Under the pieces are notes generated by a model, which saw only the letters and a list, made by a program, of their open reading frames with translations, searched no databases and was not told where the DNA came from. The position numbers and the translations under genes are program-made. Positions 23,243 through 42,818 of a stretch of DNA of 64,000 nt are shown piece after piece. Source of the DNA: Bacteroidaceae bacterium (GTDB taxonomy: Bacteria; Bacteroidota; Bacteroidia; Bacteroidales; Bacteroidaceae); the NCBI GenBank assembly GCA_017464815.1, contig JAFTYI010000005.1:22034-86033 (forward strand), in the 5' to 3' direction. How positions within the stretch are numbered: position 1 is the stretch's first letter; every line of letters begins with the position of its first letter.

Positions 23243-23308
23243 GTCGTTTTTGTCCCATAACTTGTCGGGATTGGCCGATTGCAAACCGGGATACAAGCCG
23301 TAAATTTG
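23243..23308 (+). promoter_or_regulatory. Shared sugar-regulon operator plus -7 box, upstream of the amidohydrolase
   Basis: GTCGtttttgTCCCATAActtGTCGG at 23243; TAAATTTG 23301-23308. Confidence 0.75.
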
Positions 23309-23348
23309 CAACGCAAAAAGCCCGACAAGCAATAAGGATTAAAAACGT

Positions 23349-24266
23349 ATGAAAATAATTGATGCACACGCCCACCTGTGGCTCAAGCAAGACACGGTGG
23401 TGGACGGTCTCCCCATCCGCACATTGGACAACGGTCGCTCGCTCTTCATGGGCGAAGTGCGGCAGATGCTCCCCCCCTTCATGACCGACGGGGTGAACAG
23501 TGCCGAGGTGTTCCTCTCCAACATGGATTACGCCCAAGTGTCGGCCGCGGTCATCACCCAAGAATTCATCGACGGCATCCAGAACGACTACCTCGCCGAG
23601 GTAGCCCGTTGCCACCCGTCGCGCTTCCTCGTGTGCGGCATGTGCGAGTTCCGTCGCCCCGGCTTCCTGCCCCATGCCCGCGAGTTGCTCGACGGAGGCT
23701 TCCGCGCCATCAAGATACCCGCCCAACGCCTGTTGTTGCCCGAGGGACGGGTGATGCTCACCAGCGACGAGATGATGCAGATGTTCCACCTCATGGAGGA
23801 GCGAGGGGCCATCCTCTCCATCGACCTGGCCGACGGAGCCCTGCAAGTGGGCGAGATGCAGGAGGTCATCCAAGAGTGTCCGCGCCTGAAGGTAGCCATC
23901 GGCCACTTCGGCATGGTCACCCGCCAAGGGTGGCACGAGCAGGTCAAGCTGGCCCGCCACGCGAACGTGATGATTGAATCAGGCGGCATCACGTGGCTCT
24001 TCAACGACGAGTTCTACCCCTTCCACGGCGCCATCCGCGCCATCCGCGAAGCCTCCGACCTGGTGGGCATGGACAAGCTCATGTGGGGCTCCGACTACCC
24101 GCGCACCATCACCGCCATCACCTACCGCATGTCCTACGACTTTGTTACCAAGAGCCGCGAACTCTCCCCCGAAGAAAAAGCCCTCTTCCTCGGCGAAAAC
24201 GCCCGCCGGTTCTATGGCTTCACCCACCTGGTGGAGCTGCCTTACATAAAGAATATGAGTGAATGA
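23349..24266 (+). CDS. Amidohydrolase_2 family, probable sugar lactonase (L-galactono-/L-fucono-1,5-lactonase-like)
   Basis: IIDAHAHLW, IGHFG, LMWGSDYP, ENARRFY; genomic context. Confidence 0.8.
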   Translation: MKIIDAHAHLWLKQDTVVDGLPIRTLDNGRSLFMGEVRQMLPPFMTDGVNSAEVFLSNMDYAQVSAAVITQEFIDGIQNDYLAEVARCHPSRFLVCGMCEFRRPGFLPHARELLDGGFRAIKIPAQRLLLPEGRVMLTSDEMMQMFHLMEERGAILSIDLADGALQVGEMQEVIQECPRLKVAIGHFGMVTRQGWHEQVKLARHANVMIESGGITWLFNDEFYPFHGAIRAIREASDLVGMDKLMWGSDYPRTITAITYRMSYDFVTKSRELSPEEKALFLGENARRFYGFTHLVELPYIKNMSE

Positions 24267-24269
24267 ATA

Positions 24270-24473
24270 TTTTAGGCACGGATTACGCGGATTACGCGGA
24301 TTTTTTCTTTTTCAGACATTCAACTTTCGCCGGGTATTATACCTACATGATGTCTCTGTCATTTTGAGCCTTAGCGAAAAATCTGATGACGTTAGCATTA
24401 TTACAAAAGACTTATGTTCTTATGTCTAAGAAAAAGAAAAAAACCGCGTCATCCGCGTAATCCGCACCTAAAA
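24270..24473. repeat. Palindromic element family A with an internal REP-like arm
   Basis: TTTAGGCACGGATTACGCGGATTACGCGG ... CCGCGTCATCCGCGTAATCCGCACCTAAA; internal GTCATTTTGAGCCTTAGCGAAAAATCT. Confidence 0.85.
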
Positions 24474-24500
24474 AAAATAAAAAAACAAAAATAGAGAACA

Positions 24501-25517
24501 ATGAAAGCAATCCAAATAACCGCCCCTTCAGAGATGAAGGTAACAGACATTGAAAAGCCCTGCATCGGCGCAGGCGAAGTGATGGTGAAGCTCCACTACG
24601 TAGGCTTCTGTGGCTCCGACCTCAACACCTTCCTCGGACGCAACCCCATGGTGAAACTCCCCGTCATCCCCGGCCACGAAGTGGGCGCCACCATCGAAGC
24701 CCTGGGCGAAGGCGTGCCCGACGAACTGACGGTGGGCATGAGCGTCACCCTCAACCCCTACACCAATTGCGGGAAGTGCGCCGCCTGCCGCAACGGACGC
24801 GTGAACGCCTGCCAGTTCAACGAGACACTGGGCGTTCAACGCAACGGAGTGATGACCGAGTATGCCGTAGTGCCCTGGCAAAAAGTCATCCCCGCCGAAG
24901 GCATCTCGCCACGCGATTGCGCCCTGATAGAACCCATGAGCGTGGGCTTCCATGCCGTGAGCCGTGCAGGCGTCGAAGACAACGAAGTGGTTATCGTCAT
25001 CGGATGCGGCATGGTAGGCCTTGGAGCCGTCGTGCGGGCCGCCCTGCGAGGCGCCACGGTGATAGCCATCGACCTCGATGACGAAAAACTCTCTTTGGCC
25101 AAGCAAGTGGGCGCCACCCACGTCATCAACTCGGCCAAGGAGAATGTTCACGAACGCGTACAGGCACTGACACAGAATTTGGGTGCCGACGTGGTAATTG
25201 AAGCCGTGGGAAGCCCCGCCACCTACGTGATGGCCGTGGACGAAGTCGCCTTCACCGGGCGCGTCATCTGCATCGGTTACGCCAAGAGCGAAGTCAGTTT
25301 CCAGACGAAGCTGTTCGTGCAGAAGGAGCTCGACATCCGAGGCTCGCGCAACGCCCTGCCCAGCGACTTCCGCTCCGTCATCCACTACATGAAGTCGGGC
25401 CATTTCCCCGCCGACGCCTTCATCAGCCGCATCGCCAAGCCCTCCGAAGCCGCCGACGCCATGCGTGAGTGGGCCGCCTCACCCGCCAAAGTTTTCCGCA
25501 TACTGGTAGAGTTCTGA
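24501..25517 (+). CDS. Zinc-binding alcohol dehydrogenase, probable L-galactonate 5-dehydrogenase-like
   Basis: CGSD, GHE, CGKCAAC..C, GCGMVG, KELDIRGSRNA. Confidence 0.82.
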   Translation: MKAIQITAPSEMKVTDIEKPCIGAGEVMVKLHYVGFCGSDLNTFLGRNPMVKLPVIPGHEVGATIEALGEGVPDELTVGMSVTLNPYTNCGKCAACRNGRVNACQFNETLGVQRNGVMTEYAVVPWQKVIPAEGISPRDCALIEPMSVGFHAVSRAGVEDNEVVIVIGCGMVGLGAVVRAALRGATVIAIDLDDEKLSLAKQVGATHVINSAKENVHERVQALTQNLGADVVIEAVGSPATYVMAVDEVAFTGRVICIGYAKSEVSFQTKLFVQKELDIRGSRNALPSDFRSVIHYMKSGHFPADAFISRIAKPSEAADAMREWAASPAKVFRILVEF

Positions 25518-25628
25518 TGCCCGACGGGAGGTCACATGCAGCTCACCACTCCTAAGCTCGTGCCGATGGCCGTCAGAATCGTTATCAGTGTCTGAATGAG
25601 GATTTTCCAAATGTCTCGTTTTTCTGTC

Positions 25629-25779
25629 GAGGGTGTGTCAAAATTAACTTTTTAGACGCGGATAACGCGGATGACGCGGATTTTTCGTAATTATTATACC
25701 CAAATAGGTTATAATTTATCTGCGTCATCCGCGTCATCCGCGTCTAAAAAATGAAAAGAGGGCTTTTTGACACTGCCTC
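25629..25779. repeat. Family A palindrome (25649-25750) nested inside GAGGGTGTGTCAAAA/TTTTGACACTGCCTC inverted repeats
   Basis: Both IR pairs seen directly; TTTTGACACACCCTC recurs at 41569-41583. Confidence 0.8.
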
Positions 25780-26166
25780 TTTCTACTATCAGCTTTTTCA
25801 ATGCGCTTGATGCATAAGGGATGTGCGCGTTGCAATTGATGAGCGACCAGTATATTGTAGACAATATATTGGAGGAACAGAGACAAACGGCATATTAATC
25901 AGTTATTGTCGATATTGGCAAATATTTGCAACGAGGTATTTCGAGTGCAAACCTTTTAATTAGCAAAAAATACGTCAGTTCGGGATAAGAAAGTGATGTA
26001 ATTATGAAGAATTTCACAGAATATATTGAAGAACATGTTTTACACCATCCAGTAATAAATCCCGTACTTCTATTCCTTTTCTATTTCATCAAAGTGAGAG
26101 ACTCTGCGAGGGGTGCATTATTGCATATATATACAATGTGAAGGTGAGGGGATGAGGTAAGGCACA

Positions 26167-26273
26167 AAGTGGTCAGCCCGTCTCCTCTCAAGTGGTCAGC
26201 GGCTAAGGTGTCTGGCGGTTAGCCCGTGTCCTCTCAAGTGGTCAGCGGCTGACCGCTCGACACCTTAGCCGCT
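26167..26273. repeat. Degenerate 23-bp-period array ending in an inverted partial unit
   Basis: Units start at 26167, 26190, 26213, 26236 (AAGTGGTCAGC...); GACACCTTAGCCGCT 26259-26273 is the reverse complement of 26198-26212. Confidence 0.8.
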
Positions 26274-26577
26274 AAAGGGTGGGAAAAAGGCGATTTTTGC
26301 TTGATTTTCCCGACCGGAAAATGCATAAATATACAGCGGGCGTATATTTATGCAAAACTGACCGCGTGAGAATCGCCTGTATGGGCGCGGATTTTCTTTC
26401 GCACGAAAAATGGGCAGAATTTTAATTGGGTCATAAATCATTGATGCTCAGCCCATGGATAAGACAACCTCAGCCTTGGGATAAGGTGAGCTTAGCCTTG
26501 GGATGAAGGCTAAGAATGATTGCATTTTTTCTATTTTCTTACATCATAAATTAGAAAATATTTACAGTTCACCCTTT

Positions 26578-27438
26578 TCACCCCCTCATCACCTCGCGAT
26601 ACTGCTTAGGGGTGTAGCCTGTGCGTTGGCGGAAGAGGCGGTTGAAATAGGAGTGGTCTTCGAAGCCCAGCATATAGGCCACGTTCTTCACGGGGACGTC
26701 CTCGGTGAAGAGGATGAGTTGGGCCTGCTCGATTTTCTTGCGGTTGATGTATTGCTGGGGCGTACAGCCTACCTCGCGCTTGAACAGGCGGATGTAGTGG
26801 TCCTTGGAGAGGCTGACGGCCTCGGCCAATTGGTCGAGGGTGATGGGCTTGCACAGGCGGCTGCGGATTTCGGCCATCGACCTTTGGATGCGCTCGTCGA
26901 TGTGGCCGTGGCCATGTGTGGCACTGGCAAGGAAACGGGAGAACAACTGGAAGATGATGCCGCGCGACTCGACCCGGTTGCAGAAGGTGCGCTGGCGGTT
27001 GCGGGTGATATTCCGCACCAGCGTGGGGCCGTTGTCGTAGCTCGTAGGGTCGGATTGGGGAAGCACCATGTGGGGATTGAGGTGGCACAGGCGCTCGAAA
27101 AGCAACTGCTCCAGGGTGCCCCCCTCCACCTCGGTGGGGAAATGCCACTCCTCGAGGAAGCCCGAGCTGTCGGGGGCATCTTCGTAGATGTGGAGGTAGT
27201 AGTGCACGAAATGGGCGTCGCACCGGTAGCTGTGTGTGGTAAAGGGGGGGATGAAATACATGTGCCCGGGGCGCAACGGATGCACGCCATCGGGCAAAAC
27301 GAGGTCGGCACCGCCCTCCACCACATAGAAGATGCGGGCAAAGGGGCTGTTCACATCCTGCCAGTTCCAATCGGCATGATGGCGGGCCAACCCGACATTC
27401 AGGGTTATCAAATGTAATTGCTCAACGGACTCTTTCAT
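26578..27438 (-). CDS. AraC-family transcriptional regulator
   Basis: Cupin N-terminus (SPFARIFYV..GHMYFIPPF); double HTH (LDQLAEAVSLS..LFKREVG..P..Y; LGFEDHSYFNRLF). Confidence 0.93.
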   Translation of the reverse strand: MKESVEQLHLITLNVGLARHHADWNWQDVNSPFARIFYVVEGGADLVLPDGVHPLRPGHMYFIPPFTTHSYRCDAHFVHYYLHIYEDAPDSSGFLEEWHFPTEVEGGTLEQLLFERLCHLNPHMVLPQSDPTSYDNGPTLVRNITRNRQRTFCNRVESRGIIFQLFSRFLASATHGHGHIDERIQRSMAEIRSRLCKPITLDQLAEAVSLSKDHYIRLFKREVGCTPQQYINRKKIEQAQLILFTEDVPVKNVAYMLGFEDHSYFNRLFRQRTGYTPKQYREVMRG

Positions 27439-27534
27439 GGTGCTCTACAACGTTGGGAGGCGGGGACTTTTCCGATGGCTTCCGCTGGTTTTTGTTGCAA
27501 AATTACCCTTTTTGCCCCTATCTTACAAGGAAAT

Positions 27535-27599
27535 GTCGAAAAAATCCTATCATCAGTCGCAAATGCACCATTGTATGTTGCAAGAAGTGGCTACCTTTG
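27535..27599 (+). promoter_or_regulatory. Shared operator plus -7 box, between divergent araC and GH43
   Basis: GTCGaaaaaaTCCTATCAtcaGTCG at 27535; TACCTTTG 27592-27599; divergent -7 box TAATTTTG on the minus strand at 27498-27505. Confidence 0.75.
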
Positions 27600-27633
27600 C
27601 CACGAAAAACAAAAAAACATCTTGAAGGAAACT

Positions 27634-29214
27634 ATGAGAAAACAACTGTTTGCACTTGCGCTGATGGGCACACTGGCCACTGCCCTGCCGGCCCAACAGG
27701 AATGGGGAAAGTGGGAGACTTGGGGAGAACAGGCCGACGGCACATTCCGCAACCCCGTAATACCCTCGGATTATAGCGACTTGGATTGCATCAAAGTGGG
27801 GGAAGACTACTATGCCATCTCCTCCACCATGCAATATTCGCCGGGTATGACGGTGTTGCACTCCACCGACTTGGTGAATTGGGAGATTGTGAGCAATGCC
27901 GTGGCCGACCTCACTCAGATAGGCCCTGCACTGAATTGGGACAGGATGGAGAGATACGGACGCGGTGTGTGGGCAGGCACCATCCGCCACCACAAAGGGC
28001 GTTTCTACGTCTTCTTCGGTGCACCCGATGAGGGGTACTTTATGACCTCGGCCACGAAAGCCGAAGGGCCGTGGGAGCCTCTGACCCCCCTTTTGTTAGA
28101 GAAGGGATGGGACGATTGCACCGCCATCTGGGACGAAAGGGGGCGTGGATATTTCCTCGGCACTTGCTTCAAGGACAACTACAAGACCTACATCTTCCCC
28201 ATGGCCGACGATTGCAAGAGCATCGACTTTGACAAGCGCCGCCTGCTCAACGAAGGCAATCATCGCGAAGCCAGCAAACTTATCAAACACGGGAAATATT
28301 ATTACTTGGTGTTCAGCGAGCACAAGGGCCGCTTGGGACGCTACGTGATGGCCAAGCGCGACAAGAAACTGACGGGCGACTTCAAGGAAGAGCGCCAGCT
28401 GCTACTGCCCTGTCGCGAAGCCAACGAGCCCAACCAAGGGGGCATCATCGAGGGACCCGATGGAAAGTGGTACTTCTTCACCCACCACGGTACGGGCGAT
28501 TGGGGCGGACGCATAGCCAGCCTCCTGCCGGTGGAGTGGACAAGTGACGGATGGCCCATGATGGGCGACCGCACACAAGGCGAACCGGGCACCATGGTGT
28601 GGAGTATGCCTATGCCCAAGGTGGAGCAGAAGAAACTCACCATCGGACGTAGCGATGACTTCGATGACCTGACTCTCGCCCCTTGGTGGCAATGGAACCA
28701 TCAGCCACGAGAGGGGTATTGGTCGCTCACCGAACGCCCGGGATGGATGCGCCTGCGTGCCTATCGTCCGATTGAGGCAAACAAGCTGTTGAAGGCGGGA
28801 AACACACTGACACAACGCGTCTTCCGCACGAAGGAGAGCAAGGTTGTCGTGAAGATGGACCTGCAAGGCATGAGCCATGGCCAGCGGGCAGGAGTCGCCC
28901 ACTTTGCAAGAGAGAGCAGCGCTTTAGGAGTGGTGTGCGAGGGAGACAGCATGTTTATGGAATTCCGCCACAATGACCAATGCCAACGTGGTGCTCTGAT
29001 TGCAGGGCGATACGTCTGGGTAAAGTCTGAATGGTCATTGGATGGAAAATCACATTATTCATATAGTACGGATGGAGACAACTACACACCCTTCGGAACT
29101 TATCAGCTCTCGTGGGGATATTATCGGGGCGACCGCATAGGCATCTACTGCTTCAACGACCTCGCCGACACGGGATACGTGGATGTCGATTATCTGCATT
29201 ATGAAATGAAATAA
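27634..29214 (+). CDS. Glycoside hydrolase family 43 with C-terminal ConA-like domain (beta-xylosidase/arabinofuranosidase-like)
   Basis: FRNPVIPSDYSDLD, HSTDLVNWE, GVWAG, EPNQGG, WQWNH; signal peptide from ATG 27634. Confidence 0.88.
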   Translation: MRKQLFALALMGTLATALPAQQEWGKWETWGEQADGTFRNPVIPSDYSDLDCIKVGEDYYAISSTMQYSPGMTVLHSTDLVNWEIVSNAVADLTQIGPALNWDRMERYGRGVWAGTIRHHKGRFYVFFGAPDEGYFMTSATKAEGPWEPLTPLLLEKGWDDCTAIWDERGRGYFLGTCFKDNYKTYIFPMADDCKSIDFDKRRLLNEGNHREASKLIKHGKYYYLVFSEHKGRLGRYVMAKRDKKLTGDFKEERQLLLPCREANEPNQGGIIEGPDGKWYFFTHHGTGDWGGRIASLLPVEWTSDGWPMMGDRTQGEPGTMVWSMPMPKVEQKKLTIGRSDDFDDLTLAPWWQWNHQPREGYWSLTERPGWMRLRAYRPIEANKLLKAGNTLTQRVFRTKESKVVVKMDLQGMSHGQRAGVAHFARESSALGVVCEGDSMFMEFRHNDQCQRGALIAGRYVWVKSEWSLDGKSHYSYSTDGDNYTPFGTYQLSWGYYRGDRIGIYCFNDLADTGYVDVDYLHYEMK

Positions 29215-29251
29215 GAAAAGAAGAAATCATCAAAAAAAATCAAGAACAGAT

Positions 29252-30844
29252 ATGCACAGAAGGAATTCGTTTGCAAAGGCCGCGGGCATCTTCATCGTGG
29301 CCGCTTCGATGGGGGCTTGCTCATCGGACGTGAAGGTGGAGACAGGGAAGTACAAGCCCGATTGGGAGAGTTTGAAACAATGGGAGTGTCCCGAGTGGTT
29401 CAAGGATGCCAAGTTCGGCATCTGGGCACATTGGGGGCCTCAGTGTCAGGCCGAAACGGGCGACTGGTATGCCCGCCACATGTACTACGAAAGGGATTGG
29501 CAAGGCCAGCACCACCGCCGGGTGTATGGCGACCCCAGCGAATATGGCTTGAAGGAGCTGATTCGCGACTGGAAGGCCGAGGAGTGGGACCCCGACGCAC
29601 TGGTGAAACTCTACAAGAGCGTGGGCGCCCGCTACTTCTTCACCCTGGGACAGCATCACGATAATTTCGACCTTTGGGACAGTCCCTATCAGGAGTGGAA
29701 CTCGGTGAACGTGGGACCTAAGAAGGACATCATCAAGGGATGGGCCGAGGCTTGCAAGAAATATGGCCTCCCGCTGGGCATCAGCATGCACGGAAGCCAC
29801 ACGTGGACGTGGATGGAAGGCTCGCAGGCCTACGACGGAAACCTCACCAAGGCCGATGGCAAGGGTCAATGGTGGGAGGGGCTCGACCCGCAAGAGCTCT
29901 ACGCACAACGCCACGAGCATAGCCAGGGGTGGGAAAACTCGGGCACCATCCATAGCCAATGGAACTGGGGAAACGGGGCGTCGCTGCCCTCGGAGGAATA
30001 CAAGATGAAGTTCCAAAACCGCGTGTTGGAGTGCATCAACAGGTTTCATCCCGACATGCTCTACTTCGACGACACGGTGCTCCCCTTCTACGGGTGCGAC
30101 GACCGGGTGGGCCTGAACATACTCGCCCACTACTACAACACCAGCGCCCGCTTGAACGGAGGCGAACAGAGCGTGGTGCCCATGGGCAAGGTGTTGGAAG
30201 AGGAGCACAAGGAGCTGATGATGTGGGACGTGGAGCGCGGAGTGCCCGACAAGGCGCAGGAGAAATATTGGCAGACGTGTACTTGCCTCGGCTCGTGGCA
30301 CTACGAGCAGGGCGTCTATAACCAAAACCGCTACAAGAGCGCCCAGCAGGTCATCAGCATGTTGGTGGACGTGGTGAGCAAAAACGGCAACCTGCTCCTC
30401 AGTGTCCCCGTCCGCGCCAACGGAACCATCGATGATAAGGAAACAGCCATCCTCGAAGGCATCAAGGAGTGGATGGACGTGAACGGCGCCTCCATCTACG
30501 GCACCCGCCCGTGGAAAACCTTTGGCGAAGGCCCCATGGCCGAGAATAGCAATCCGCTCAAAGCACAGGGCTTCAACGAGAACAACAACTACTCGTCGGC
30601 CGACATACGCTTTGTGCAGAGAAACGACACCGTCTTCACCACCATCATGCGCTGGCCACAGGACAAGGAGGTGACCATCAAGGCATTCGGCACCGCCTCG
30701 CCCCACTATAGCGGAGAGGTGAAGAGCGTCGAACTCTTAGGACACGGCACCCTCGCCTTCACCAACGGAGAGGACGGTCTGAAGGTGACTCTCCCCAAGG
30801 AGCCGACCAACAGGATTGCCCCCGTGCTGGCCGTGACGTTTTGA
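29252..30844 (+). CDS. GH29 alpha-L-fucosidase family lipoprotein
   Basis: PEWFKDAKFGIWAHWG, HHDNF, VSKNGNLLL, IYGTRPW; lipobox MGAC. Confidence 0.92.
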   Translation: MHRRNSFAKAAGIFIVAASMGACSSDVKVETGKYKPDWESLKQWECPEWFKDAKFGIWAHWGPQCQAETGDWYARHMYYERDWQGQHHRRVYGDPSEYGLKELIRDWKAEEWDPDALVKLYKSVGARYFFTLGQHHDNFDLWDSPYQEWNSVNVGPKKDIIKGWAEACKKYGLPLGISMHGSHTWTWMEGSQAYDGNLTKADGKGQWWEGLDPQELYAQRHEHSQGWENSGTIHSQWNWGNGASLPSEEYKMKFQNRVLECINRFHPDMLYFDDTVLPFYGCDDRVGLNILAHYYNTSARLNGGEQSVVPMGKVLEEEHKELMMWDVERGVPDKAQEKYWQTCTCLGSWHYEQGVYNQNRYKSAQQVISMLVDVVSKNGNLLLSVPVRANGTIDDKETAILEGIKEWMDVNGASIYGTRPWKTFGEGPMAENSNPLKAQGFNENNNYSSADIRFVQRNDTVFTTIMRWPQDKEVTIKAFGTASPHYSGEVKSVELLGHGTLAFTNGEDGLKVTLPKEPTNRIAPVLAVTF

Positions 30845-31041
30845 AAAACACACGACCGTTGGTCGCTTCTCCCTCTCTTCCATTCGTGAAAAATGCGTAT
30901 TTACGCAAAAATCACGAATGGAATGGTCTTTCAATACGACAATCTCCGCCCGTTTGCCGCGTTTCTTCGGTTCACGAGCGGAGTTTTTTTTATTCTACTG
31001 CCTGTATCAATGGTGCAACCGGCACAAGATTGCACAAGCGT

Positions 31042-31106
31042 GTCGTTATCCTCCTATCATTTGTCGGGATAAGCCGACGGGAATTGGAGGGAAATAAGTA
31101 CTTTTG
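31042..31106 (+). promoter_or_regulatory. Shared operator plus -7 box, upstream of the mutarotase
   Basis: GTCGttatccTCCTATCAtttGTCGG at 31042; TACTTTTG 31099-31106. Confidence 0.8.
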
Positions 31107-31139
31107 CAGTGTTTTAATAACTAAAAAACTGTTGGAACA

Positions 31140-31514
31140 ATGAAAGGATACACCACCCGACAACACCCCGTGCCCGTGAAGCGCTATTGCCGCACGATGG
31201 ACCTGAAGAACGACCCGGCGCTGATTGCCGAATACGTGAAACGACATAGCGAGGAGGAATCGTGGCCGGAAATCAGAGAAGGCATCCGCCAAGTAGGCAT
31301 CTTGGAAATGGAAATCTACATCCTCGGAAACCGCCTGTTCATGATTGTGGAGACGCCCCTCGACTTTGATTGGGACACCGCCATGAGGCGCCTCGCCACC
31401 CTGCCGCGCCAACAGGAGTGGGAGGACTTCATGGCCATCTTCCAACAATGCAACGAAGGCGACACGGCCGACGAAAAGTGGAAGATGATGGAGAGGATGT
31501 TTTACCTCTACTGA
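31140..31514 (+). CDS. L-rhamnose mutarotase (RhaM/DUF718) family protein
   Basis: DPALIAEYVKRH..WPEI..GILEMEIY..RLFM. Confidence 0.88.
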   Translation: MKGYTTRQHPVPVKRYCRTMDLKNDPALIAEYVKRHSEEESWPEIREGIRQVGILEMEIYILGNRLFMIVETPLDFDWDTAMRRLATLPRQQEWEDFMAIFQQCNEGDTADEKWKMMERMFYLY

Positions 31515-31517
31515 TTA

Positions 31518-33329: not shown

Positions 33330-33409
33330 ATATGTATAAAATGTTGCATCGCCCGATTTTTATATGTATGATTTGTTGCATGAGAGGGAATCGAACGGTT
33401 CGCAGCACT
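33330..33409. repeat. Dispersed copy of 2275-2354; probable remnant of the 3' end of a deleted regulator paralog
   Basis: 62/63 identity between 33330-33392 and 2275-2337, with weaker similarity for about 17 more bp. Confidence 0.8.
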
Positions 33410-33746
33410 TTGGGAACAACCAAAATAGTCCTTTCCTTCAAAACAAATCTTTATTAAACACCTCAATTATATTTGGGGTTTCACAAAACGAAAAAACAGG
33501 GTACCACCTTATTTGTCAACGTTTTACAAAGCGCACTCCTTCCCTCCGAAAGAATGGAGCAAAATAAAGGAAAGTTTTTTTTAACTATTTATCGTCTTCT
33601 CTTTACATAAAACAATATATATTTGCAACGACAAAGGAATAAGAACTTACAATTATCACACAGCTTTTGTCAGAAAGAAGCTCGCGCTTCACAAAAAAGG
33701 CGAATCGCAACCAACTGGAATTATTAACATTTAACTCGATACTGTT

Positions 33747-35537: not shown

Positions 35538-35561
35538 AAATTCCCCTTTTCACGCAACAAG

Positions 35562-35763
35562 TTATGCCTTTCTCGCTAACGAGGAAGGCATAAGCATCAG
35601 CATCTGTGATGCAATAAACGACTCGCAATCAATTATAAAAAGCGCATTACAGATGATACTCCGTCCATCCTCATTTCGAAATGAGGATGGACGGGGAATT
35701 TCAGGTTCAATGTTCAACAAAAGCAACAAAGAGGTGCACATCCAACGATGTGTACCTCTTGTT
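35562..35763. terminator. Three hairpins between convergent genes, including a perfect 34-bp palindrome
   Basis: Stems at 35562-35593, 35661-35694 (CCGTCCATCCTCATTTCGAAATGAGGATGGACGG) and about 35725-35763. Confidence 0.65.
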
Positions 35764-35784
35764 ACATAATATCACCGAGAACTA

Positions 35785-36648
35785 TTACAACCCCGCAATC
35801 TCTTCTGCTGACAGACCGGTGGATTTGATGATGGTTCCCGTATCGACACCACAATTCTTTAAGTTACGGGCTACAGCGTAAATTCCTTCTGCACGACCTT
35901 CTGCACGACCTTCCGCACGACCTTCCGCACGTTCGGTTGTAATGTTGTCGCGAAGGATGATGACATTATCAAGGTGGCGGTAATAAGCCCGCTGCTCTTC
36001 TTGGGAGAGGGAGGCGATATCCAAAATTCCACGAGCCTCTGCCAAGCCGGGAGCATCGGCATCATCAGGGATTTCGCCCGTATTGAGGAAGTATATCCAC
36101 TGTTCAAGAGGAACCTTTGACCACTTGTTGAAGTCATTCACGCGAAGGATATAGTACTCGGGATAGAGCTGGCTGACGGTTTCCACTTGAAACTTCTCGC
36201 GTTGGAAAGGAGAGAGTTGCAGAATATCGTGATCGTGTATTCCGCGGAACTCAGTGGTACCGTGGTAAACGGTATCCTTGCCGGCACCCAAGGCAAAATA
36301 GACTATGTTGATGCTGTATATCTTACGGATATTCTCGTAGCCCTGGCCACGGCGGATGTACTCTGTCACCAGCTTAGAGACACCGAATAGCATACGCTGG
36401 AAGTAGGCATATTCATTATTGTTCTGTATTTCGAACAGAATCAGTCGCCCCTTGCTGTCCTCGGCAAGGATGTCCACGCGATTATATTTATCGTATTCCT
36501 CCTCTTGATTGCTCTCGCTCTCCAACATGCGCCGGATAGTGATTTTCTCATTCAGAAGCGAAGTCAACAATCCCTCTATTACGCCAAAGTTGGCTTTGTC
36601 GCGCAACAGGCGCTTCATCGCCCAATCAAATCGGATGTAATTTGCCAT
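35785..36648 (-). CDS. Rpn-family PD-(D/E)XK nuclease (recombination-promoting nuclease/putative transposase)
   Basis: IRFDWAMKRLL, NRVDIL, FEIQ, YFQRMLFG; C-terminal EGRA repeats and TGLSAEEI. Confidence 0.92.
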   Translation of the reverse strand: MANYIRFDWAMKRLLRDKANFGVIEGLLTSLLNEKITIRRMLESESNQEEEYDKYNRVDILAEDSKGRLILFEIQNNNEYAYFQRMLFGVSKLVTEYIRRGQGYENIRKIYSINIVYFALGAGKDTVYHGTTEFRGIHDHDILQLSPFQREKFQVETVSQLYPEYYILRVNDFNKWSKVPLEQWIYFLNTGEIPDDADAPGLAEARGILDIASLSQEEQRAYYRHLDNVIILRDNITTERAEGRAEGRAEGRAEGIYAVARNLKNCGVDTGTIIKSTGLSAEEIAGL

Positions 36649-36754
36649 AACTTCCACTATTTTAGTTTATCTGCCGCAAAAATAGCATTTAATTCTGAAT
36701 ACCGCAATTATTTCACAAAATTTATGGGACAAAGGCTCTGCATCGGCATCGCGC

Positions 36755-36819
36755 CTCGTTATTATCCTATCATTTGTCGGAATAGGACTATTCAATAAGG
36801 GAGGAAAAGCGTACTTTTG
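36755..36819 (+). promoter_or_regulatory. Shared operator plus -7 box, upstream of the aldo/keto reductase
   Basis: cTCGttattaTCCTATCAtttGTCGG at 36755; TACTTTTG 36812-36819. Confidence 0.8.
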
Positions 36820-36844
36820 CCCATAAAAATTAAAAGAAAGAAAC

Positions 36845-37780
36845 ATGTTAGCATATCATGAACTTGGAAAAACGGGGATGAAGATTTCATCGCTCAGTTT
36901 TGGGGCCTCGTCGCTGGGAGGCGTGTTTCACGGTTTGAAAGAGGAAGAGGGCATCGAGGCGGTGCACACGGCCATTGATGCCGGTATCAATTTTATAGAC
37001 GTGTCGCCCTACTATGGGCACTACAAGGCGGAAACGGTGCTTGGCAAGGCTCTTAGGGAGATACGGCGCGACCGCTATTACCTCTCGACCAAGGTGGGGC
37101 GCTATGGCAAGGATGGGGTGAACACGTGGGACTACAGTGCCCGACGGGCTACGGAGAGTGTCTACGAGAGCATGGAGCGCCTGAACGTGGAGTATATCGA
37201 CCTCATCAATGTGCACGACATTGAGTTTGCCGACCTCCATCAGGTGGTGGAGGAGACGTTGCCTGCCCTGGTGGAGCTGCGCGACAAGGGCGTGGTGGGA
37301 CACGTGGGCATCACAGACCTGCAACTGGAGAACTTGCAATGGGTGGTGGAGCACTCACCCGAGGGGACGGTGGAGACGGTGCTGAACTTCTGCCACCATT
37401 GCCTGTGCGACGACAAGTTGCTTGACTATCTGGGCTTCTTCGAAGAGCGCGGCATCGGCGTCATCAACGCGTCGCCCCTCTCGATGGGATTGTTGAGCGA
37501 ACGCGGTGTGCCTGCGTGGCACCCGGCTCCCACCCCGCTGGTGGAGGCTTGCCGACGCGCCATGGAGCATTGCAAGCAAAAGGGATACCCCATCGAACGG
37601 CTGGCCATGCAATATGCCGTGAGCAATCCGCGCATCGCCTCGACCCTGTTCAGCACCACCAATCCGCAAAACGTGCTGAAGAATGTGGCGTATGCCCAAG
37701 AGAGCGTGGACGAAGAGTTGCTTCACGAAGTGCGCCAGATTATCGGCGGACAGATGAGGGTAAGTTGGAAGAATTCGTAA
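36845..37780 (+). CDS. Aldo/keto reductase, probable L-galactose (L-fucose) dehydrogenase
   Basis: FGASSLGGVF, GINFIDVSPYYG, STKVGRYG, VHDIEF, INASPLSMGLL, which resemble L-galactose dehydrogenases. Confidence 0.82.
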   Translation: MLAYHELGKTGMKISSLSFGASSLGGVFHGLKEEEGIEAVHTAIDAGINFIDVSPYYGHYKAETVLGKALREIRRDRYYLSTKVGRYGKDGVNTWDYSARRATESVYESMERLNVEYIDLINVHDIEFADLHQVVEETLPALVELRDKGVVGHVGITDLQLENLQWVVEHSPEGTVETVLNFCHHCLCDDKLLDYLGFFEERGIGVINASPLSMGLLSERGVPAWHPAPTPLVEACRRAMEHCKQKGYPIERLAMQYAVSNPRIASTLFSTTNPQNVLKNVAYAQESVDEELLHEVRQIIGGQMRVSWKNS

Positions 37781-37795
37781 ATTGGCAACAAGGGA

Positions 37796-37926
37796 TTTTT
37801 AGGAGTGGAGGAGTGTTTCTTTTTAGGAGTAGAGGAGTGTAGACGAATGTCTTGCAAATGATGGTCGAAACTATTGTCTACACTCCTAAGCGAAGCGTCA
37901 CTCCTTCACTCCTACACTCCTAAAAA
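37796..37926. repeat. Palindromic element family B (AGGAGT...ACTCCT)
   Basis: Repeated AGGAGT arms pair with repeated ACTCCT arms; AGGAGTGTAGAC/GTCTACACTCCT stem; internal GCGAAGCG. Confidence 0.8.
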
Positions 37927-37944
37927 GATAAAAAAGACAGATAT

Positions 37945-40521
37945 ATGAAAAAGAATTTACTACTATGGTTATGCTACCTTCTTGCCCTGCCCATGTTGGC
38001 AGGAGGGAATGAGGGAAAGGGCAACGAAGTGAACATTCCTTTCAACAAAGGTACATTGCGCCTGCACATCATGGCCGGAAATGCCGTGCGTGTGCAATAC
38101 ACCGAAGGCGAAGGGCGCGAATTGCCCGAATGGATCTACCTGCCCGAAGCGGGAAAGGGCAACGTGCAATACAGACACCGCCAAACAAACGACGAGACCA
38201 TTGTCGAGACTTCTGACATGACAATCCGGGTAGATGGCGGGAAACAGACCTTGACGGTGAGCAATGCGAAGGGCGAAGAGGTGTTCAAGGCCAACTCACA
38301 CCAGTTGAAGGCAGGCACCGTGCAAGGCGAACCTACCTATAGCGCAGAAATTAAGATGACATCGCCCACCGACGAATACCTCTACGGCCTCGGACAATTT
38401 CAGGACGGATACGCCAACGTGCGCGGATTGACCCGACGCCTGACACAGGTGAACACGCAGATTGCCATCCCCTTCATCCTCTCAAGCCGAGGATATGGCC
38501 TGCTTTGGAACAACTATGGATTGACCGAGTTCAACCCCTCAGACACGTTCATCAGACTTGAGCAGGGCAATGAGGTGGGCGAAGCGGTGGCCGTAGACGT
38601 GACCTCCACCGAAGGAGGCCGACGCGAAGTGCGCCGTTCAAACGGATTCAAAGGGACACTGGACGTGCCCGCCAGCGGGAAATATGCCTTGTTGCTGAAC
38701 GTGGGACAGAGCATGGCCCGCCGACACCACTTGGTGATTGACGGGGCGACGGTGGTGGACGTGCGCAACCTGTGGCTGCCCCCTACGACCTCGGTCATTG
38801 TGGATTTGGAAGCAGGGAAGCATGAGATTGTGGCGGAATTGGAGCGCAACGACCGTCCGACCCTCTACTACCGCCCCGTAGACAACAGCACCACCCTGCG
38901 TTCACCCGTGGCATCGTGTGTGGATTACACTCTTTTCATCGGTTCTGCCGACGAAGCCATTGCCTCCTACCGCGACCTGACGGGCGAAGTGCCGATGCTC
39001 CCCCAATGGGCACTTGGATACGTCCATTGCCGCGAGCGTTACAAATCGCAAAAGGAATTGCTGGAGAACGCCGCCACCTTCCGCCAACGGAATCTGCCCA
39101 TCGACCTGATAGTGCAAGACTGGCAATATTGGGGAAAATACGGATGGAATGCCATGCGCTTCGATGAAGCACACTATCCCGACCCGGCTGCCATGATGGA
39201 CTCGTTGCACCGCATGAACATGCGCCTGATGCTGTCAGTGTGGTCAAAGGTTGACCCCAATTCGGAAGTGGGACGTCAGATGACAGAGAAGGGATACTAC
39301 ATTCCCCAGACGTCGTGGATCGACTTCTTCAACCCCGACGCGGCCGCCTTCTATTGGAAGAACTTCAGCGAACGCTTGCTCAAGCCCTACGGCATAGATG
39401 CCTGGTGGCAAGATGCGACCGAACCCGAAAACGATGACTTGGCAGGCCGACGGGTGAACAATCAGACCATCCCCGGCGAGGTGTATCGCAACGTCTACCC
39501 CCTGTTGGTGAGCAAGACGGTATACGAGGGATGTCGCACGGACGACCCTGCACGACGCCACATGATATTCACCCGCAGTGCCTTTCCGGGCATACAACGC
39601 TATGGCTCGGTCTTCTGGTCGGGCGACGTGGGCAACGACTGGGAGACCTTGCGCCGGCAAATTGTCTCAGGACTCGGACTTGTCAGCACGGGACTCCCTT
39701 GGTGGACCTACGATGCAGGCGGTTTCTTCCGTCCGGGCAACCAGCATACCAATGCCGACTACATCGAATGTATGCTCCGCTGGATACAGGCCGGCACCTT
39801 CCTGCCCCTGATGCGTGTGCATGGCTACATGAGCGACACCGAACCCTGGCGCTATGGCGAGGAGGCCGAACAAATCATCGCCAAATACTTGGAATTGCGC
39901 TATCGCCTGCTTCCTTATATCTATAGCGAAGCGGCCCGCGTCTCATCCGAGGGCTCCACACTGATGCGTCCCTTGGTGTTCGACTTTGCGGACGACGAAG
40001 AGGCATTGAAGCAGGATGTGGAGTACATGTTCGGTCCCTCGTTGCTTGTCAACCCCGTGGTGAAACCTAAGGTTACCAGCTACAAGATCTATCTGCCCGA
40101 AAACACAGGCGGGTGGTATGACTACTGGACAGGCAAGCAATACAATGGGAAACAATCTGTGGAAACAGCCATCGGCATAGACAAGATTCCCCTCTTCATC
40201 AAGGCCGGCTCCATCATCCCCTTCGGACCCGCCAAGCAATATGCAACCGAGGCCAGCGACGAACAGACCACCCTGCATATCTATCCGGGAGCCGACGCCA
40301 CCTTCTGCCTCTACGAGGACGAAGGCACCAACCACAACTACGAATCGGGGGCCTACAGCCGCATTCCATTGGCATGGGACGAGGCCAGACAGACACTGAC
40401 CATCGGCAAGCGCCAAGGCTCGTTCGAAGGAATGCCCAAGAAACGCACCTTCACCCTCGTCAAAGGCCAACAGAAGAAAGAGGTTGTCTACACAGGGAAA
40501 AAGATAAAGGTGAAGTGGTGA
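37945..40521 (+). CDS. GH31 glycoside hydrolase (alpha-xylosidase-like)
   Basis: YGLGQFQ, VQDWQYW, AWWQDATEP nucleophile, WSGDV, WTYDAGGF, YEDEG; signal peptide. Confidence 0.88.
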   Translation: MKKNLLLWLCYLLALPMLAGGNEGKGNEVNIPFNKGTLRLHIMAGNAVRVQYTEGEGRELPEWIYLPEAGKGNVQYRHRQTNDETIVETSDMTIRVDGGKQTLTVSNAKGEEVFKANSHQLKAGTVQGEPTYSAEIKMTSPTDEYLYGLGQFQDGYANVRGLTRRLTQVNTQIAIPFILSSRGYGLLWNNYGLTEFNPSDTFIRLEQGNEVGEAVAVDVTSTEGGRREVRRSNGFKGTLDVPASGKYALLLNVGQSMARRHHLVIDGATVVDVRNLWLPPTTSVIVDLEAGKHEIVAELERNDRPTLYYRPVDNSTTLRSPVASCVDYTLFIGSADEAIASYRDLTGEVPMLPQWALGYVHCRERYKSQKELLENAATFRQRNLPIDLIVQDWQYWGKYGWNAMRFDEAHYPDPAAMMDSLHRMNMRLMLSVWSKVDPNSEVGRQMTEKGYYIPQTSWIDFFNPDAAAFYWKNFSERLLKPYGIDAWWQDATEPENDDLAGRRVNNQTIPGEVYRNVYPLLVSKTVYEGCRTDDPARRHMIFTRSAFPGIQRYGSVFWSGDVGNDWETLRRQIVSGLGLVSTGLPWWTYDAGGFFRPGNQHTNADYIECMLRWIQAGTFLPLMRVHGYMSDTEPWRYGEEAEQIIAKYLELRYRLLPYIYSEAARVSSEGSTLMRPLVFDFADDEEALKQDVEYMFGPSLLVNPVVKPKVTSYKIYLPENTGGWYDYWTGKQYNGKQSVETAIGIDKIPLFIKAGSIIPFGPAKQYATEASDEQTTLHIYPGADATFCLYEDEGTNHNYESGAYSRIPLAWDEARQTLTIGKRQGSFEGMPKKRTFTLVKGQQKKEVVYTGKKIKVKW

Positions 40522-40630
40522 AAAAAGAGGAATAAAATGCACGACCAGTCTTCTGGCAACTGTTTTTTTGCGTATATTTGCAGTCGCAATAAAAAGAAGC
40601 ATAAAAACAACTCTTAAAAAGAATTCACCT

Positions 40631-41440
40631 ATGAAAAAGAGACTGACAACCCTGATTCTGTGTCTGGCCACGCTTGCACCTGCCATGAGCCAGCTGACAA
40701 TGACTCATCCCTGGCAAGGAAAGAAGGTGGCCTACTTCGGCGACTCAATCACTGACCCACGCAACAAGGCATCGAAGACCAAGTATTGGGGATTCCTGCA
40801 AGAGTGGTTGCAGATTACCCCCTATGTCTACGGCGTAAGCGGACGGCAATGGAACGACATTCCTCGCCAGACGGCCAAGTTGAAGGAGGAGCATGGCAAT
40901 GATTTCGACGCCATCCTCATCTTCATGGGCACCAACGACTACAACAATGCCGTGCCCATCGGAGAATGGTTTGAGGAACGGATGGAGAAGGTTGAATACG
41001 GCCATCAGTACGTCAAGCGCATGGAGGACCGCCTGCGACGCACACCCGTCATGGACAAGGATACCTATCGCGGACGCATCAACATTGCCCTCGATTCGCT
41101 GAAGCGAACCTTCCCCGACAAGCAGATAGTCCTGCTCACCCCCATCCATCGCGCCGGATTTTATGCCAACGACAAGAACTGGCAGTGCTCCGAGGACTAT
41201 GTAAACCGTTGCGGTGAATACCTCGATGCCTACGTGGAGAGCATCAAGGAGGCCGGCAACATCTGGGCCATGCCCGTCGTCGACCTGGGTGCCCTCAGCG
41301 GCCTCTATCCCCTGCACGACTCCCACAAGCAATACTTCAAGGATGCTGCCACCGACTGCCTCCACCCCAACGACTTGGGACACGAGCGCATGGCCCGCAC
41401 CCTAATGTACCAGTTGTTGGCACTTCCTTGTACATTCTGA
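40631..41440 (+). CDS. SGNH/GDSL hydrolase (carbohydrate acetylesterase-like)
   Basis: FGDSIT, MGTND, DCLHPN; signal peptide from ATG 40631; -7 box 40573-40580. Confidence 0.88.
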   Translation: MKKRLTTLILCLATLAPAMSQLTMTHPWQGKKVAYFGDSITDPRNKASKTKYWGFLQEWLQITPYVYGVSGRQWNDIPRQTAKLKEEHGNDFDAILIFMGTNDYNNAVPIGEWFEERMEKVEYGHQYVKRMEDRLRRTPVMDKDTYRGRINIALDSLKRTFPDKQIVLLTPIHRAGFYANDKNWQCSEDYVNRCGEYLDAYVESIKEAGNIWAMPVVDLGALSGLYPLHDSHKQYFKDAATDCLHPNDLGHERMARTLMYQLLALPCTF

Positions 41441-41443
41441 TTC

Positions 41444-41583
41444 TTAGGCACGGATTACACGGATTTATATTTCAATTTTATACCCGAACGGTTATAATTC
41501 ATCCGTGTAATCCGCGGAGTTCCCTTGAGCAAAGCGAAAAATCCGCGCCTTAAAAAAGGAATGATGCATTTTGACACACCCTC
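41444..41583. repeat. Palindromic element family A followed by a solo TTTTGACACACCCTC arm
   Basis: TTAGGCACGGATTACACGGAT...ATCCGTGTAATCCGCG[insert]AATCCGCGCCT. Confidence 0.85.
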
Positions 41584-41601
41584 AGTGCAAAGTTCAATCC
41601 C

Positions 41602-42696
41602 ATGAGCAATCGGAAAATCATTCACATCGACATGGATGCCTTTTATGCTTCGGTGGAGCAACGCGACAACCCTGACCTGCGTGGACACCCCGTAGCGGTG
41701 GGGCATGCAGGCGAGCGTGGTGTCGTGTCGGCCGCCAGCTACGAAGCACGCAAGTATGGGGTGCACTCAGCCATGTCGTCCCAAAAGGCAATGCGCCTGT
41801 GTCCCGAACTCATCTTTGTCCCCGGACGTATGGAGGTCTACAAAGAGGTGTCGGGAGAAATCCACGACATCTTTCGCGAATACACCGATATCATCGAACC
41901 CCTCTCGCTCGATGAAGCCTTTTTGGATGTGACGGAGAACAAGAAGGGGATTCCGTTGGCTGTGGATATAGCCCGCGAAATCAAACAGAAGATACGCTCA
42001 AAGCTGGGGCTGGTGGCCTCGGCCGGCGTGTCGTACAACAAGTTTCTGGCCAAAGTAGCCTCCGACTACCGCAAGCCCGACGGTTTGTGCACCATCCATC
42101 CCGACCAGGCATTGGAGTTCATTGCCCGCTTGCCCATCGAACGTTTCTGGGGAGTAGGTCCTGTCACCGCCAAACGGATGCATGCCTTGGGCATTCATGA
42201 CGGAGCACATCTGCGTGCCTGGTCGTTGGATGGGCTGACACGCGAATTTGGCAAAGCCGGAGCGCTCTACCACAACTTCTCCCGCGGCATTGACCTGCGC
42301 CCCGTCGAGGCTGTGCGTGTGCGCAAGTCCATCGGTTGCGAACGGACACTGGAGCACGACATCAATGCCCGTTCGGCCGTCATCATCGAGCTTTACCATA
42401 CGGCCGTGGAGCTCGTCAACCGCCTTTCGGCCAAGGAGTTCAAGGGGAACACTCTCACACTGAAGGTGAAGTTCCACGACTTCACACAAATCACCCGCAG
42501 CATCACCCAATCCCATGAATTGACGACGTTAGACATCATCCTCCCCCTGGCCAAACAGCTCCTCGCCGAGGTGGAGTACGAAGAGCATCCCATCCGCCTC
42601 ATCGGCCTCTCCGTCTCCAATCCCCGCGACAAAGAGGAGGAGAATGCCAAGTCAGTCATATGGGAACAGCTTTCACTGAAGTTCGAGGAGTGGTGA
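41602..42696 (+). CDS. dinB: DNA polymerase IV
   Basis: [46 protein letters not shown]. Confidence 0.96.
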
Positions 42697-42753
42697 AAAA
42701 GATGGGAGAGAGCCTGTCACAGAGGCCTCGAATCCATCATTATCCCTTCCCAC

Positions 42754-42818
42754 ATCGATTTTTTCCTATGATTGGAAGGTGAGAGACTATGCAGAAGAAG
42801 GAAAAAGCCGTATCTTTG
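42754..42818 (+). promoter_or_regulatory. Partial shared operator plus -7 box, upstream of GH95
   Basis: aTCGattttt.TCCTATGAtt with TCC at 42764; TATCTTTG 42811-42818; same 47-bp spacing as the other sites. Confidence 0.6.

Follow-up and report, generated by a model that had tools for sequence, protein, structure and literature searches.

L-Fucose and L-galactose are found as end-groups in mucin, plant xyloglucan, rhamnogalacturonan-II and algal glycans. To our knowledge, the GntR-type FucR is the only L-fucose regulator described in Bacteroides, and for the L-galactose pathway none came up in the literature searched. For the Bacteroides vulgatus L-galactose pathway (Bvu0219-0222), Hobbs et al. 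reportedly characterised the enzymes in 2014 but not the regulator or operator. Tandem sites with a 21-bp architecture are of the type used by the AraC family: E. coli AraC, of the AraC/XylS family, carries out class II-type activation at araI1-I2, where direct-repeat half-sites lie about 21 bp apart, and represses by looping when its sugar is absent. The contacts between activators and RNA polymerase at -33/-7 promoters are, as far as we know, poorly studied.

In Bacteroides, a direct-repeat motif with 21-bp periodicity has been predicted for the AraC-type RhaR (PMC3870299). The 2013 regulon reconstruction in B. thetaiotaomicron includes RhaR as the sole AraC-family transcription factor among 11 monosaccharide regulators and attributes the L-fucose regulon to FucR (BT1272, GntR family) (PMC3878776).

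Here we describe five promoter sites in a 64,000-nt window (the whole stretch of DNA analysed) from a Bacteroidaceae bacterium. Taken as a whole, they are probably operators of a neighbouring cupin-AraC regulator that would activate an L-galactose/L-fucose regulon. This is an ordinary kind of sugar switch; we found no earlier description of it, its regulator or its motif in the literature searched, and absence there is not proof of novelty. Like E. coli AraC, the regulator is a one-component protein that joins a cupin domain for sugar binding and dimerisation to a double HTH, its gene is divergent from a target operon, and, as at araI1-I2, some 21 bp separate the half-sites, the proximal of which extends into the -35/-33 region. 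It differs from E. coli AraC in its Bacteroidota promoters (TAnnTTTG -7 box), an unrelated half-site sequence and another sugar. B. thetaiotaomicron RhaR (BT3768), an AraC-family L-rhamnose activator, is of the same phylum and family and also regulates a 6-deoxy-L-hexose pathway, but it targets a rhamnose kinase, isomerase and aldolase, whereas the genes here comprise GH29, RhaM and the L-galactose oxidative pathway. FucR, which controls L-fucose use in gut Bacteroides, shares a link through the sugar (in some relatives, fucI and an MFS permease stand behind the present operator), but it is of another protein family, presumably works as a repressor, and has an unrelated motif (PMC3878776).

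Five sites at a fixed distance from the -7 box

A pattern search of the window gave exact matches to TCGNNNNNNTCCYATNANNNGTCG at 23244, 27536, 31043 and 36756, all on the + strand, and 100 dinucleotide-preserving shuffles gave 0 matches. Written as TCG-n6-TCCYAT-n-A-n3-GTCG, the motif has four copies in the window against 0 expected. A fifth, partial copy at 42755, before a GH95 gene, keeps TCG-n6-TCCTAT intact and misses the downstream GTCG. All five site-bearing promoters fall within 20 kb. An earlier, sequence-only reading had placed this motif upstream of the amidohydrolase, GH43, mutarotase, AKR and, partially, GH95 genes, and the four exact matches and one partial copy bear it out. The fixed distance that it had claimed from the TCC core to the TAnnTTTG -7 box came out again on re-measurement (48, 47, 47, 47 and 47 bp), as did the 21-bp separation of the (G)TCG halves, measured from TCG to TCG.

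Transcription start positions were taken from the -7 box. TTTG is absent from the -33 position in all five promoters, as is typical of activator-dependent promoters. An Rfam scan of 22000-46000 gave no matches. When the five promoters are aligned, conservation is limited to the half-site boxes of the operator and the -7 box, and the sequence 5' of the operator is unrelated among them. This argues against a similarity that stems from copied promoter cassettes, that is, from paralogous DNA and not from selection on a binding site. The RhaM and AKR promoters are indeed 71% identical over 70 nt, but the core and its spacing recur in distant genera, in intergenic regions that are otherwise unalignable, and we regard copied cassettes as highly improbable.

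Half-sites and their position in the promoter

Within the operator, a 15-bp half-site, TCG-n6-TCCYAT, is directly repeated in tandem with a period of 21 bp. Autocorrelation of the distal half-site gives a single peak, at offset 21 (7.8/15 matches versus 4.2 +/- 0.5 elsewhere, z 6.7), with 9, 10, 8, 9 and 6 of 15 at the five window sites. The 21-bp tandem proposed before thus stands, but the TCG boxes, which had been taken for the halves, are only the 5' ends of the 15-bp half-sites. Proximal half-sites are weak in this genome; perfect tandems, TTGTCCTAT-n12-TTGTCCTAT, are present in other genera. Measured upstream from the T of the TAnnTTTG -7 box, the distal core is 47-48 bp away and the proximal core 26-27 bp, so that the proximal half-site ends at the would-be -33 element. 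By autocorrelation and core positions, the arrangement is that of the AraC/XylS family: direct-repeat half-sites in tandem beside the promoter, roughly two turns of the helix apart.

We envision that, in the presence of a sugar of the L-galactose/L-fucose type, a dimer of the regulator would bind the operator, with each monomer reaching into two consecutive major grooves at the TCG box and the CYAT box, and that the bound dimer would recruit RNA polymerase as AraC does at araI1-I2. Binding by the AraC protein, activation over repression and the identity of the inducer are what we infer here. The protein could instead bind mainly as a repressor, or act in a dual manner, for example by looping as E. 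coli AraC does without sugar, in which case the constant spacing would stem from the blocking of an upstream promoter element. The operator adjoins the araC promoter in the window, and Prevotella-type loci carry a second, inverted core 36 bp from the araC -7 box, both of which would suit repression. However, the sites lie entirely 5' of the -7 box, ending at about -33, the missing TTTG speaks for dependence on an activator, and Bacteroides RhaR, of the same family, is cited as a positive regulator in PMC3870299. A mainly repressing or dual regulator seems unlikely to us, and activation by the AraC-type regulator is the reading followed below.

The adjoining regulator and its orthologues

The araC gene (26578..27438, minus strand, 286 aa) has a -7 box of its own, TAATTTTG (27505-27498, minus strand). 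Its product carries a C-terminal double HTH at residues 204-282 (PF12833 HTH_18, E 1.6e-22; PF00165 HTH_AraC, E 1e-24) and an N-terminal cupin-type domain at residues 30-84, the match to which is weak but consistent (PF02311 AraC_binding, 22.8 bits against a cut-off of 21.1; Cupin_2, 23.7 bits, under its cut-off of 27.2). The two hallmarks of the AraC/XylS family, double HTH and, for its sugar-responsive subgroup, a cupin-type ligand-binding/dimerisation domain, are thus both there. A hybrid two-component system (HTCS) would unite periplasmic sensor, histidine kinase, receiver and AraC-type output in a single protein; with cupin and HTH domains only, the adjoining 286-aa regulator is not an HTCS. 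NCBIfam gave no equivalog name above cut-off for the regulator, the lactonase, GH43, GH29 or GH95.

With about 60 related genomes as the comparison base, AraC orthologues 40-84% identical were found in Bacteroidaceae, which as used here include Prevotella/Segatella, and in one Duncaniella MAG; a 60%-identical orthologue is named 'MULTISPECIES Bacteroides'/B. faecis (P0061, P0093). In the promoter regions next to them the core recurs, again 47/48 bp (and 26/27 bp) from a -7 box. In fact, TCCTAT emerges with no prior as the top enriched hexamer, in 32 of 48 dereplicated araC-upstream regions against 3.5 expected, and CCTA[TC] peaks at 46-47 bp (21 cases) and 25-26 bp (11 cases) from the -7 box, other distances having scattered counts of one or two. 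Many loci of 50-60% orthologues have aCCTAT or gCCTAT as the distal core and their strong copy in the proximal position; with such drift, many of them escape a strict 'TCCYAT plus -7 box' rule.

In a 200-genome family sample, a related pattern occurs in 21 of 63 AraC-positive genomes versus 6 of 137 AraC-negative ones. The latter is about the control rate (reversed-pattern control, ~4%), and the matches behind it either fall within coding sequence or have no ORF after them. Since relatives are not independent, the association between regulator and motif is weaker than the Fisher p of 1e-7 suggests. The tally itself is an undercount, scored with the single variant TTGTCCTAT: about two-thirds of the AraC-positive genomes fail this strict pattern owing to motif drift (for example aCCTAT, with the strong copy in the proximal half). 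Within the genus, the composite pattern stands only before orthologues of regulon genes, one chance-looking match excepted, and every genome with the pattern has the AraC except one that is 75% complete (G022, GH95 site). Above chance, the site thus appears confined to regulator-bearing genomes.

The operator could also be real but belong to another transcription factor, either an HTCS with AraC-type output or a regulator encoded elsewhere, adjacency then reflecting a shared sugar context. Bacteroides HTCS regulators likewise use direct repeats (PMC3878776), and G022 has its GH95 site with no AraC detected. Against this, AraC is the only regulator adjoining the operon in compact loci (L131), in many genera the motif stays with the AraC orthologue even where gene order has changed, and AraC-negative genomes match at no more than the control rate; we find another factor quite unlikely. 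All the comparative evidence gathered supports the AraC at 26578-27438, already proposed as the cognate regulator, and indicates that the five sites would be its binding sites.

A PWM scan of the 2.63-Mb assembly (79% complete) scores the five sites at 30-40 bits and the next best at 23 bits, so that the only strong sites are those of the window. The runner-up has no -7 box in the following 60 nt, and we read it as probable conserved coding sequence because a near-identical counterpart exists in G013, of the same genus. Leave-one-out scans with the 42-bp operator placed the excluded sites at ranks 5, 5, 5, 3 and 6 of 5,262,550 positions.

Genes behind the proposed operators

Operator 1 (23244..23279, +) has distal TCGTTTTTGTCCCAT at 23244-23258, proximal TCGGGATTGGCCGAT at 23265-23279 and a -7 box at 23301-23308. 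Transcription unit 1 (23349..25517, +) encodes by Pfam an Amidohydro_2 lactonase-like protein (23349-24266) and a Zn-dependent dehydrogenase (24501-25517) that is L-galactonate dehydrogenase-like on the basis of operon context; they share 76-82% identity with genes of the conserved operon found in two relatives (L130/L131). Operator 2 (27536..27571, +; distal TCGAAAAAATCCTAT, proximal TCGCAAATGCACCAT; -7 box 27592-27599) lies in the araC/GH43 divergent gap, its distal edge some 30 bp 5' of the araC -7 box, and precedes unit 2 (27634..30844, +) with GH43 (27634-29214) and a GH29 alpha-L-fucosidase (29252-30844; Pfam). Operator 3 (31043..31078, +; TCGTTATCCTCCTAT / TCGGGATAAGCCGAC; -7 box 31099-31106) stands before unit 3 (31140..31514, +), a RhaM-family mutarotase by Pfam; an identical site precedes RhaM-AKR in G041. 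The gene at 31518-33161 (-), previously labelled an Rpn nuclease, is by Pfam a second GH43, and an Rpn-like PD-(D/E)XK gene lies at 35785-36657 (-).

Operator 4 (36756..36791, +; TCGTTATTATCCTAT / TCGGAATAGGACTAT; -7 box 36812-36819) has orthologous sites before AKR in L023, L024 and G009. Its unit 4 (36845..41440, +) holds the AKR L-galactose dehydrogenase (36845-37780), GH31 (37945-40521) and an SGNH esterase (40568-41440). The SGNH gene had been given a promoter without the motif; a separate promoter is not evident, the GH31-SGNH gap being 46 bp with no -7 box. Operator 5, the weakest (42755..42790, +; TCGATTTTTTCCTAT / AAGGTGAGAGACTAT; -7 box 42811-42818), precedes unit 5 (42848..45319, +), by Pfam a GH95 of the alpha-L-fucosidase/alpha-L-galactosidase family, whose start is most likely the ATG at 42848, 3' of its -7 box; an orthologous site precedes GH95 in G022.

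As in the Bvu0219-0222 pathway, there is an AKR-type L-galactose dehydrogenase: the AKR matches PDB 7lh6 (E 4.9e-150, residues 2-311) and four further L-galactose dehydrogenases (E 1e-80 to 1e-94). The putative lactonase is Amidohydro_2 and the putative L-galactonate dehydrogenase ADH_N/ADH_zinc_N (Pfam), neither having a solved homologue at E 1e-10 or an NCBIfam equivalog above cut-off. The same order of AKR, amidohydrolase, MFS and Zn-dehydrogenase genes is seen in L130/L131, whose operon includes the MFS permease; in the window the operon is broken up, and no permease turned up. In fact, the 79%-complete assembly holds only a 26-28% identical MFS gene in place of a dedicated MFS sugar permease, and a search of it for permease and fucI as extra regulon members found none; given this completeness, the regulon may be larger here. 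Behind the operator in relatives are GH29 fucosidases, GH95, GH43, RhaM, AKR L-galactose dehydrogenase, fucI and MFS permease (the last in L012, L016 and L125). We propose that GH29, GH95, GH43, GH31 and SGNH would release L-fucose/L-galactose from glycans, that RhaM would anomerise the sugar, and that L-galactose dehydrogenase, lactonase and L-galactonate dehydrogenase would oxidise L-galactose.

A possible sugar sensor and its uses

We lean towards regarding the AraC orthologue group as a so-far undescribed L-galactose/L-fucose sensor, carried by about one third of sampled Bacteroidaceae and one Duncaniella MAG, with its operator defined here. Such an operator would allow sequence-only regulon prediction for fucoside and galactoside use in gut and rumen Bacteroidales, and predicts a compact sugar-inducible promoter module. 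If the reading is true, five promoters, separately rearranged in one genome yet strictly spaced, would offer a clean natural setting in which to study how activation depends on position at Bacteroidota sigma-A promoters, and an L-galactose/L-fucose-inducible expression switch is possible. The fixed 47/26-bp geometry also bears on the contact between activator and RNA polymerase at -33/-7 promoters.

A fragmented locus

The regulon had been described as dispersed, and its five units are indeed scattered. In L131, however, the layout is compact (araC<>GH29-RhaM-AKR-AmidoH-MFS-ZnADH), and the regulon here is a fragmented version of this locus, which is conserved in Bacteroidaceae. We also considered whether the AKR promoter had been copied recently from that of RhaM, following the GH43/BNR/PD-(D/E)XK insertion; this idea was dropped because L023, L024 and G009 have the orthologous AKR promoter, all without the insertion. 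Between the amidohydrolase and Zn-dependent dehydrogenase genes of unit 1 lies a 204-bp palindromic element, and a hairpin at 30878-30923 lies 3' of unit 2.

A probable operator at five promoters

Five promoters in the window share a predicted operator, TCG-n6-TCCYAT, which as a sequence feature is real and specific. The extended pattern TCG-n6-TCCYAT-n-A-n3-GTCG matches four times in 64 kb, at 23244, 27536, 31043 and 36756 and always on the plus strand, and in none of 100 dinucleotide-preserving shuffles of the window. A fifth, partial site at 42755 keeps TCG-n6-TCCTAT and lacks the downstream GTCG. The TCC core begins 48, 47, 47, 47 and 47 bp upstream of the TAnnTTTG (-7) box, and the four full sites and one partial site at fixed spacing described in the sequence-only reading thus stand. 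The genome scan proposed there also holds up: with a PWM derived from all five and run over the whole assembly (2.63 Mb in 58 contigs, 79% complete, the window lying on C24), the five score 30-40 bits, clear of the runner-up at 23 bits. This runner-up shows no -7 box in the following 60 nt, and a second genome of the genus (G013) contains an almost identical sequence; we read the runner-up as conserved coding sequence. When each site is left out in turn and the full 42-bp operator is used, the omitted site ranks 5, 5, 5, 3 and 6 among 5,262,550 positions, the GH95 site being the weakest of the five.

The operators precede five plus-strand units, annotated with Pfam: an Amidohydro_2 lactonase-like gene (23349-24266) with a Zn-dependent dehydrogenase (24501-25517); a GH43 (27634-29214) with a GH29 alpha-L-fucosidase (29252-30844); a RhaM-family mutarotase (31140-31514); an aldo/keto reductase (AKR, 36845-37780) with a GH31 (37945-40521) and an SGNH esterase (40568-41440); and a GH95 (ATG at 42848, end at 45319). 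L-galactose enzymes were reportedly characterised in B. vulgatus by Hobbs and colleagues in 2014. The AKR matches the 'L-galactose dehydrogenase' of PDB 7lh6 (E 4.9e-150) and also four other L-galactose dehydrogenases. Two earlier assignments change. The gene at 31518-33161 (minus strand), taken for an Rpn nuclease, is a second GH43, the PD-(D/E)XK (Rpn-like) gene being 35785-36657 (minus strand). The SGNH gene had been given its own, motif-free promoter; TAnnTTTG was not found in any gap inside the units, so a separate promoter is not evident. Palindromic repeat elements occupy three of these four gaps and also the SGNH-dinB gap. Directly 3' of GH29, a hairpin with 22-nt arms (30878-30923) is likely to terminate the GH43-GH29 unit ahead of the RhaM promoter.

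Anatomy of the predicted operator

The 21-bp spacing of the TCG boxes noted earlier is right, and each of the two boxes marks only the 5' end of a 15-bp half-site. Distal and proximal halves read TCGTTTTTGTCCCAT and TCGGGATTGGCCGAT at the amidohydrolase, TCGAAAAAATCCTAT and TCGCAAATGCACCAT at GH43, TCGTTATCCTCCTAT and TCGGGATAAGCCGAC at RhaM, TCGTTATTATCCTAT and TCGGAATAGGACTAT at the AKR, and TCGATTTTTTCCTAT and AAGGTGAGAGACTAT at GH95. We compared the distal half with offsets of 6-39 bp across 35 dereplicated sites from the window and related genomes. Only at offset 21 does it match itself, at 7.8 of 15 positions against 4.2 +/- 0.5 elsewhere (z 6.7), in a set partly chosen by a CCYAT-like core at either position; the five window sites, not so chosen, give 9, 10, 8, 9 and 6 of 15 on their own. 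Other genera carry the tandem explicitly, as TTGTCCTAT-n12-TTGTCCTAT or as gTCGATATTGaCCTAT-n15-TCCTAT with the -7 box 20 bp on. When the five promoters are aligned, identity is limited to the half-site boxes and the -7 box, and the most alike pair is RhaM and AKR (71% over 70 nt).

The neighbouring AraC gene as probable regulator

The proposed cognate regulator, encoded at 26578-27438 on the minus strand, has 286 aa and combines an N-terminal AraC_binding/cupin domain with a double HTH (Pfam). Comparative genomics supports this assignment, through TCCTAT enrichment and co-occurrence with the orthologue, and the five sites as its predicted operators. Orthologues occur in 13 of 31 species genomes of the genus and in 63 of 200 family genomes (14 of 20 genera); those drawn from public contigs come from ruminant-gut Bacteroidaceae MAGs (70-84% identity), Prevotella and Segatella albensis DSM 11370 (~45%) and one Duncaniella MAG (40%). 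In 48 dereplicated araC-upstream regions, no hexamer is as over-represented as TCCTAT (32 regions against 3.5 expected), which ranks above the words of the -7 box. There CCTA[TC] lies 46-47 bp from TAnnTTTG in 21 cases and 25-26 bp in 11, other distances occurring once or twice only, and TCGA is commonest at 55-57 bp.

Within the genus, the composite TCG-n6-TCCYAT-n41/42-TAnnTTTG matches five times in the window genome and also in eight other genomes, always 5' of a gene orthologous or paralogous to a member of the regulon (RhaM-AKR-lactonase, AKR-GH31, GH29, GH95, GH43), bar one chance-looking match in G006, which is AraC-negative. All genomes with a match before regulon genes carry the orthologue except G022 (75% complete). 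The first pattern also matches 5' of fucI in one genome (G004) and of an MFS permease in two (G009 and G017). Across the family sample, TTGTCCTAT-n41/42-TAnnTTTG matches in 21 of 63 AraC-positive against 6 of 137 AraC-negative genomes, and a reversed-pattern control gives 8 matches in 201; the Fisher p of 1e-7 is overstated because relatives are not independent. Matches in AraC-positive genomes precede nine GH29 genes and three L-galactose-dehydrogenase-type AKRs, and also fucI, RhaM, an MFS permease, a GH97 and a small number of genes from other or unknown families; those in AraC-negative genomes fall inside coding sequence or lack a downstream ORF.

A full-text literature search turned up neither this regulator nor its motif. 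The system would be of a well-known kind, a sugar activator of the AraC type acting at a tandem operator. The 2013 regulon reconstruction of B. thetaiotaomicron assigns fucose to FucR, of the GntR family, and contains RhaR as the only AraC-family factor among 11 monosaccharide regulators (PMC3878776). The operator stands 5' of L-fucose isomerase (fucI) in two genomes (L015, which is G004, and L115, which is G106), so in some species the AraC regulator may fill the role of FucR.

Proposed mechanism

Placing the T of TAnnTTTG near -13, our own estimate, would put the half-sites at about -69 to -55 and -48 to -34. The proximal one would end at the -33 position, where TTTG was not found in these promoters. 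This is the geometry known for class II-type activators of the AraC family. It also matches the direct repeats with a 21-bp period predicted for RhaR, an AraC-type regulator of Bacteroides (PMC3870299). From these two likenesses we would expect a dimer that activates transcription in response to L-galactose and/or L-fucose, with each monomer touching one TCG box and, a helical turn away, one CYAT box. At GH43, the operator's distal edge and the araC -7 box (minus strand, 27505-27498) are ~30 bp apart, so autoregulation is possible. Prevotella/Segatella loci (L037-L050) have, on top of the 47-bp site of the divergent GH29 promoter, an inverted core ATAGGACAAAAT 36 bp upstream of the araC -7 box, which may be a dedicated autoregulatory site.

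A compact locus and a dispersed one

In one complete genome (L131) the whole set forms one divergent locus with just one operator, araC<>GH29-RhaM-AKR-lactonase-MFS-dehydrogenase; in another (L130), AKR-lactonase-MFS-dehydrogenase follows araC, which is divergent from GH29-SusC-SusD. Loci are likewise compact in two genomes closely related to that of the window (L024 and L026). In the window genome the genes of this locus are split over five units, each with one operator in identical register, and between the units lie the second GH43, a BNR/sortilin propeller protein, the PD-(D/E)XK gene, dinB and ~1 kb of repeat-rich non-coding DNA. An orthologous permease or fucI was not found in the incomplete (79%) assembly. 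The propeller protein (33747-35537; 596 aa, secreted, BNR/Sortilin-Vps10-like below the Pfam cut-off) and the second GH43, encoded between the RhaM and AKR units and without an operator, may be parts of a different glycan system inserted in the locus.

Repeats elsewhere in the window

Palindromic MITE/REP-like elements lie in intergenic gaps at 24270-24473, 25644-25755, 37796-37928 and 41444-41556, with arms of up to 44 nt that are 88-95% complementary and a common unit TTAGGCACGGATTACGCGGAT. Two sit inside putative operons, between amidohydrolase and Zn-dehydrogenase and between AKR and GH31, and such elements could attenuate read-through. The repeat-rich non-coding DNA (25518-26577) runs from the Zn-dehydrogenase to the 3' end of araC; it contains a near-perfect hairpin (26198-26273) and no match to an Rfam family. 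Upstream of the topoisomerase III gene, at 45322-45496, lies an array with a 23-bp period, in which six ACCCACCTGTGTCT cores are separated by variable spacers of 8-9 nt.
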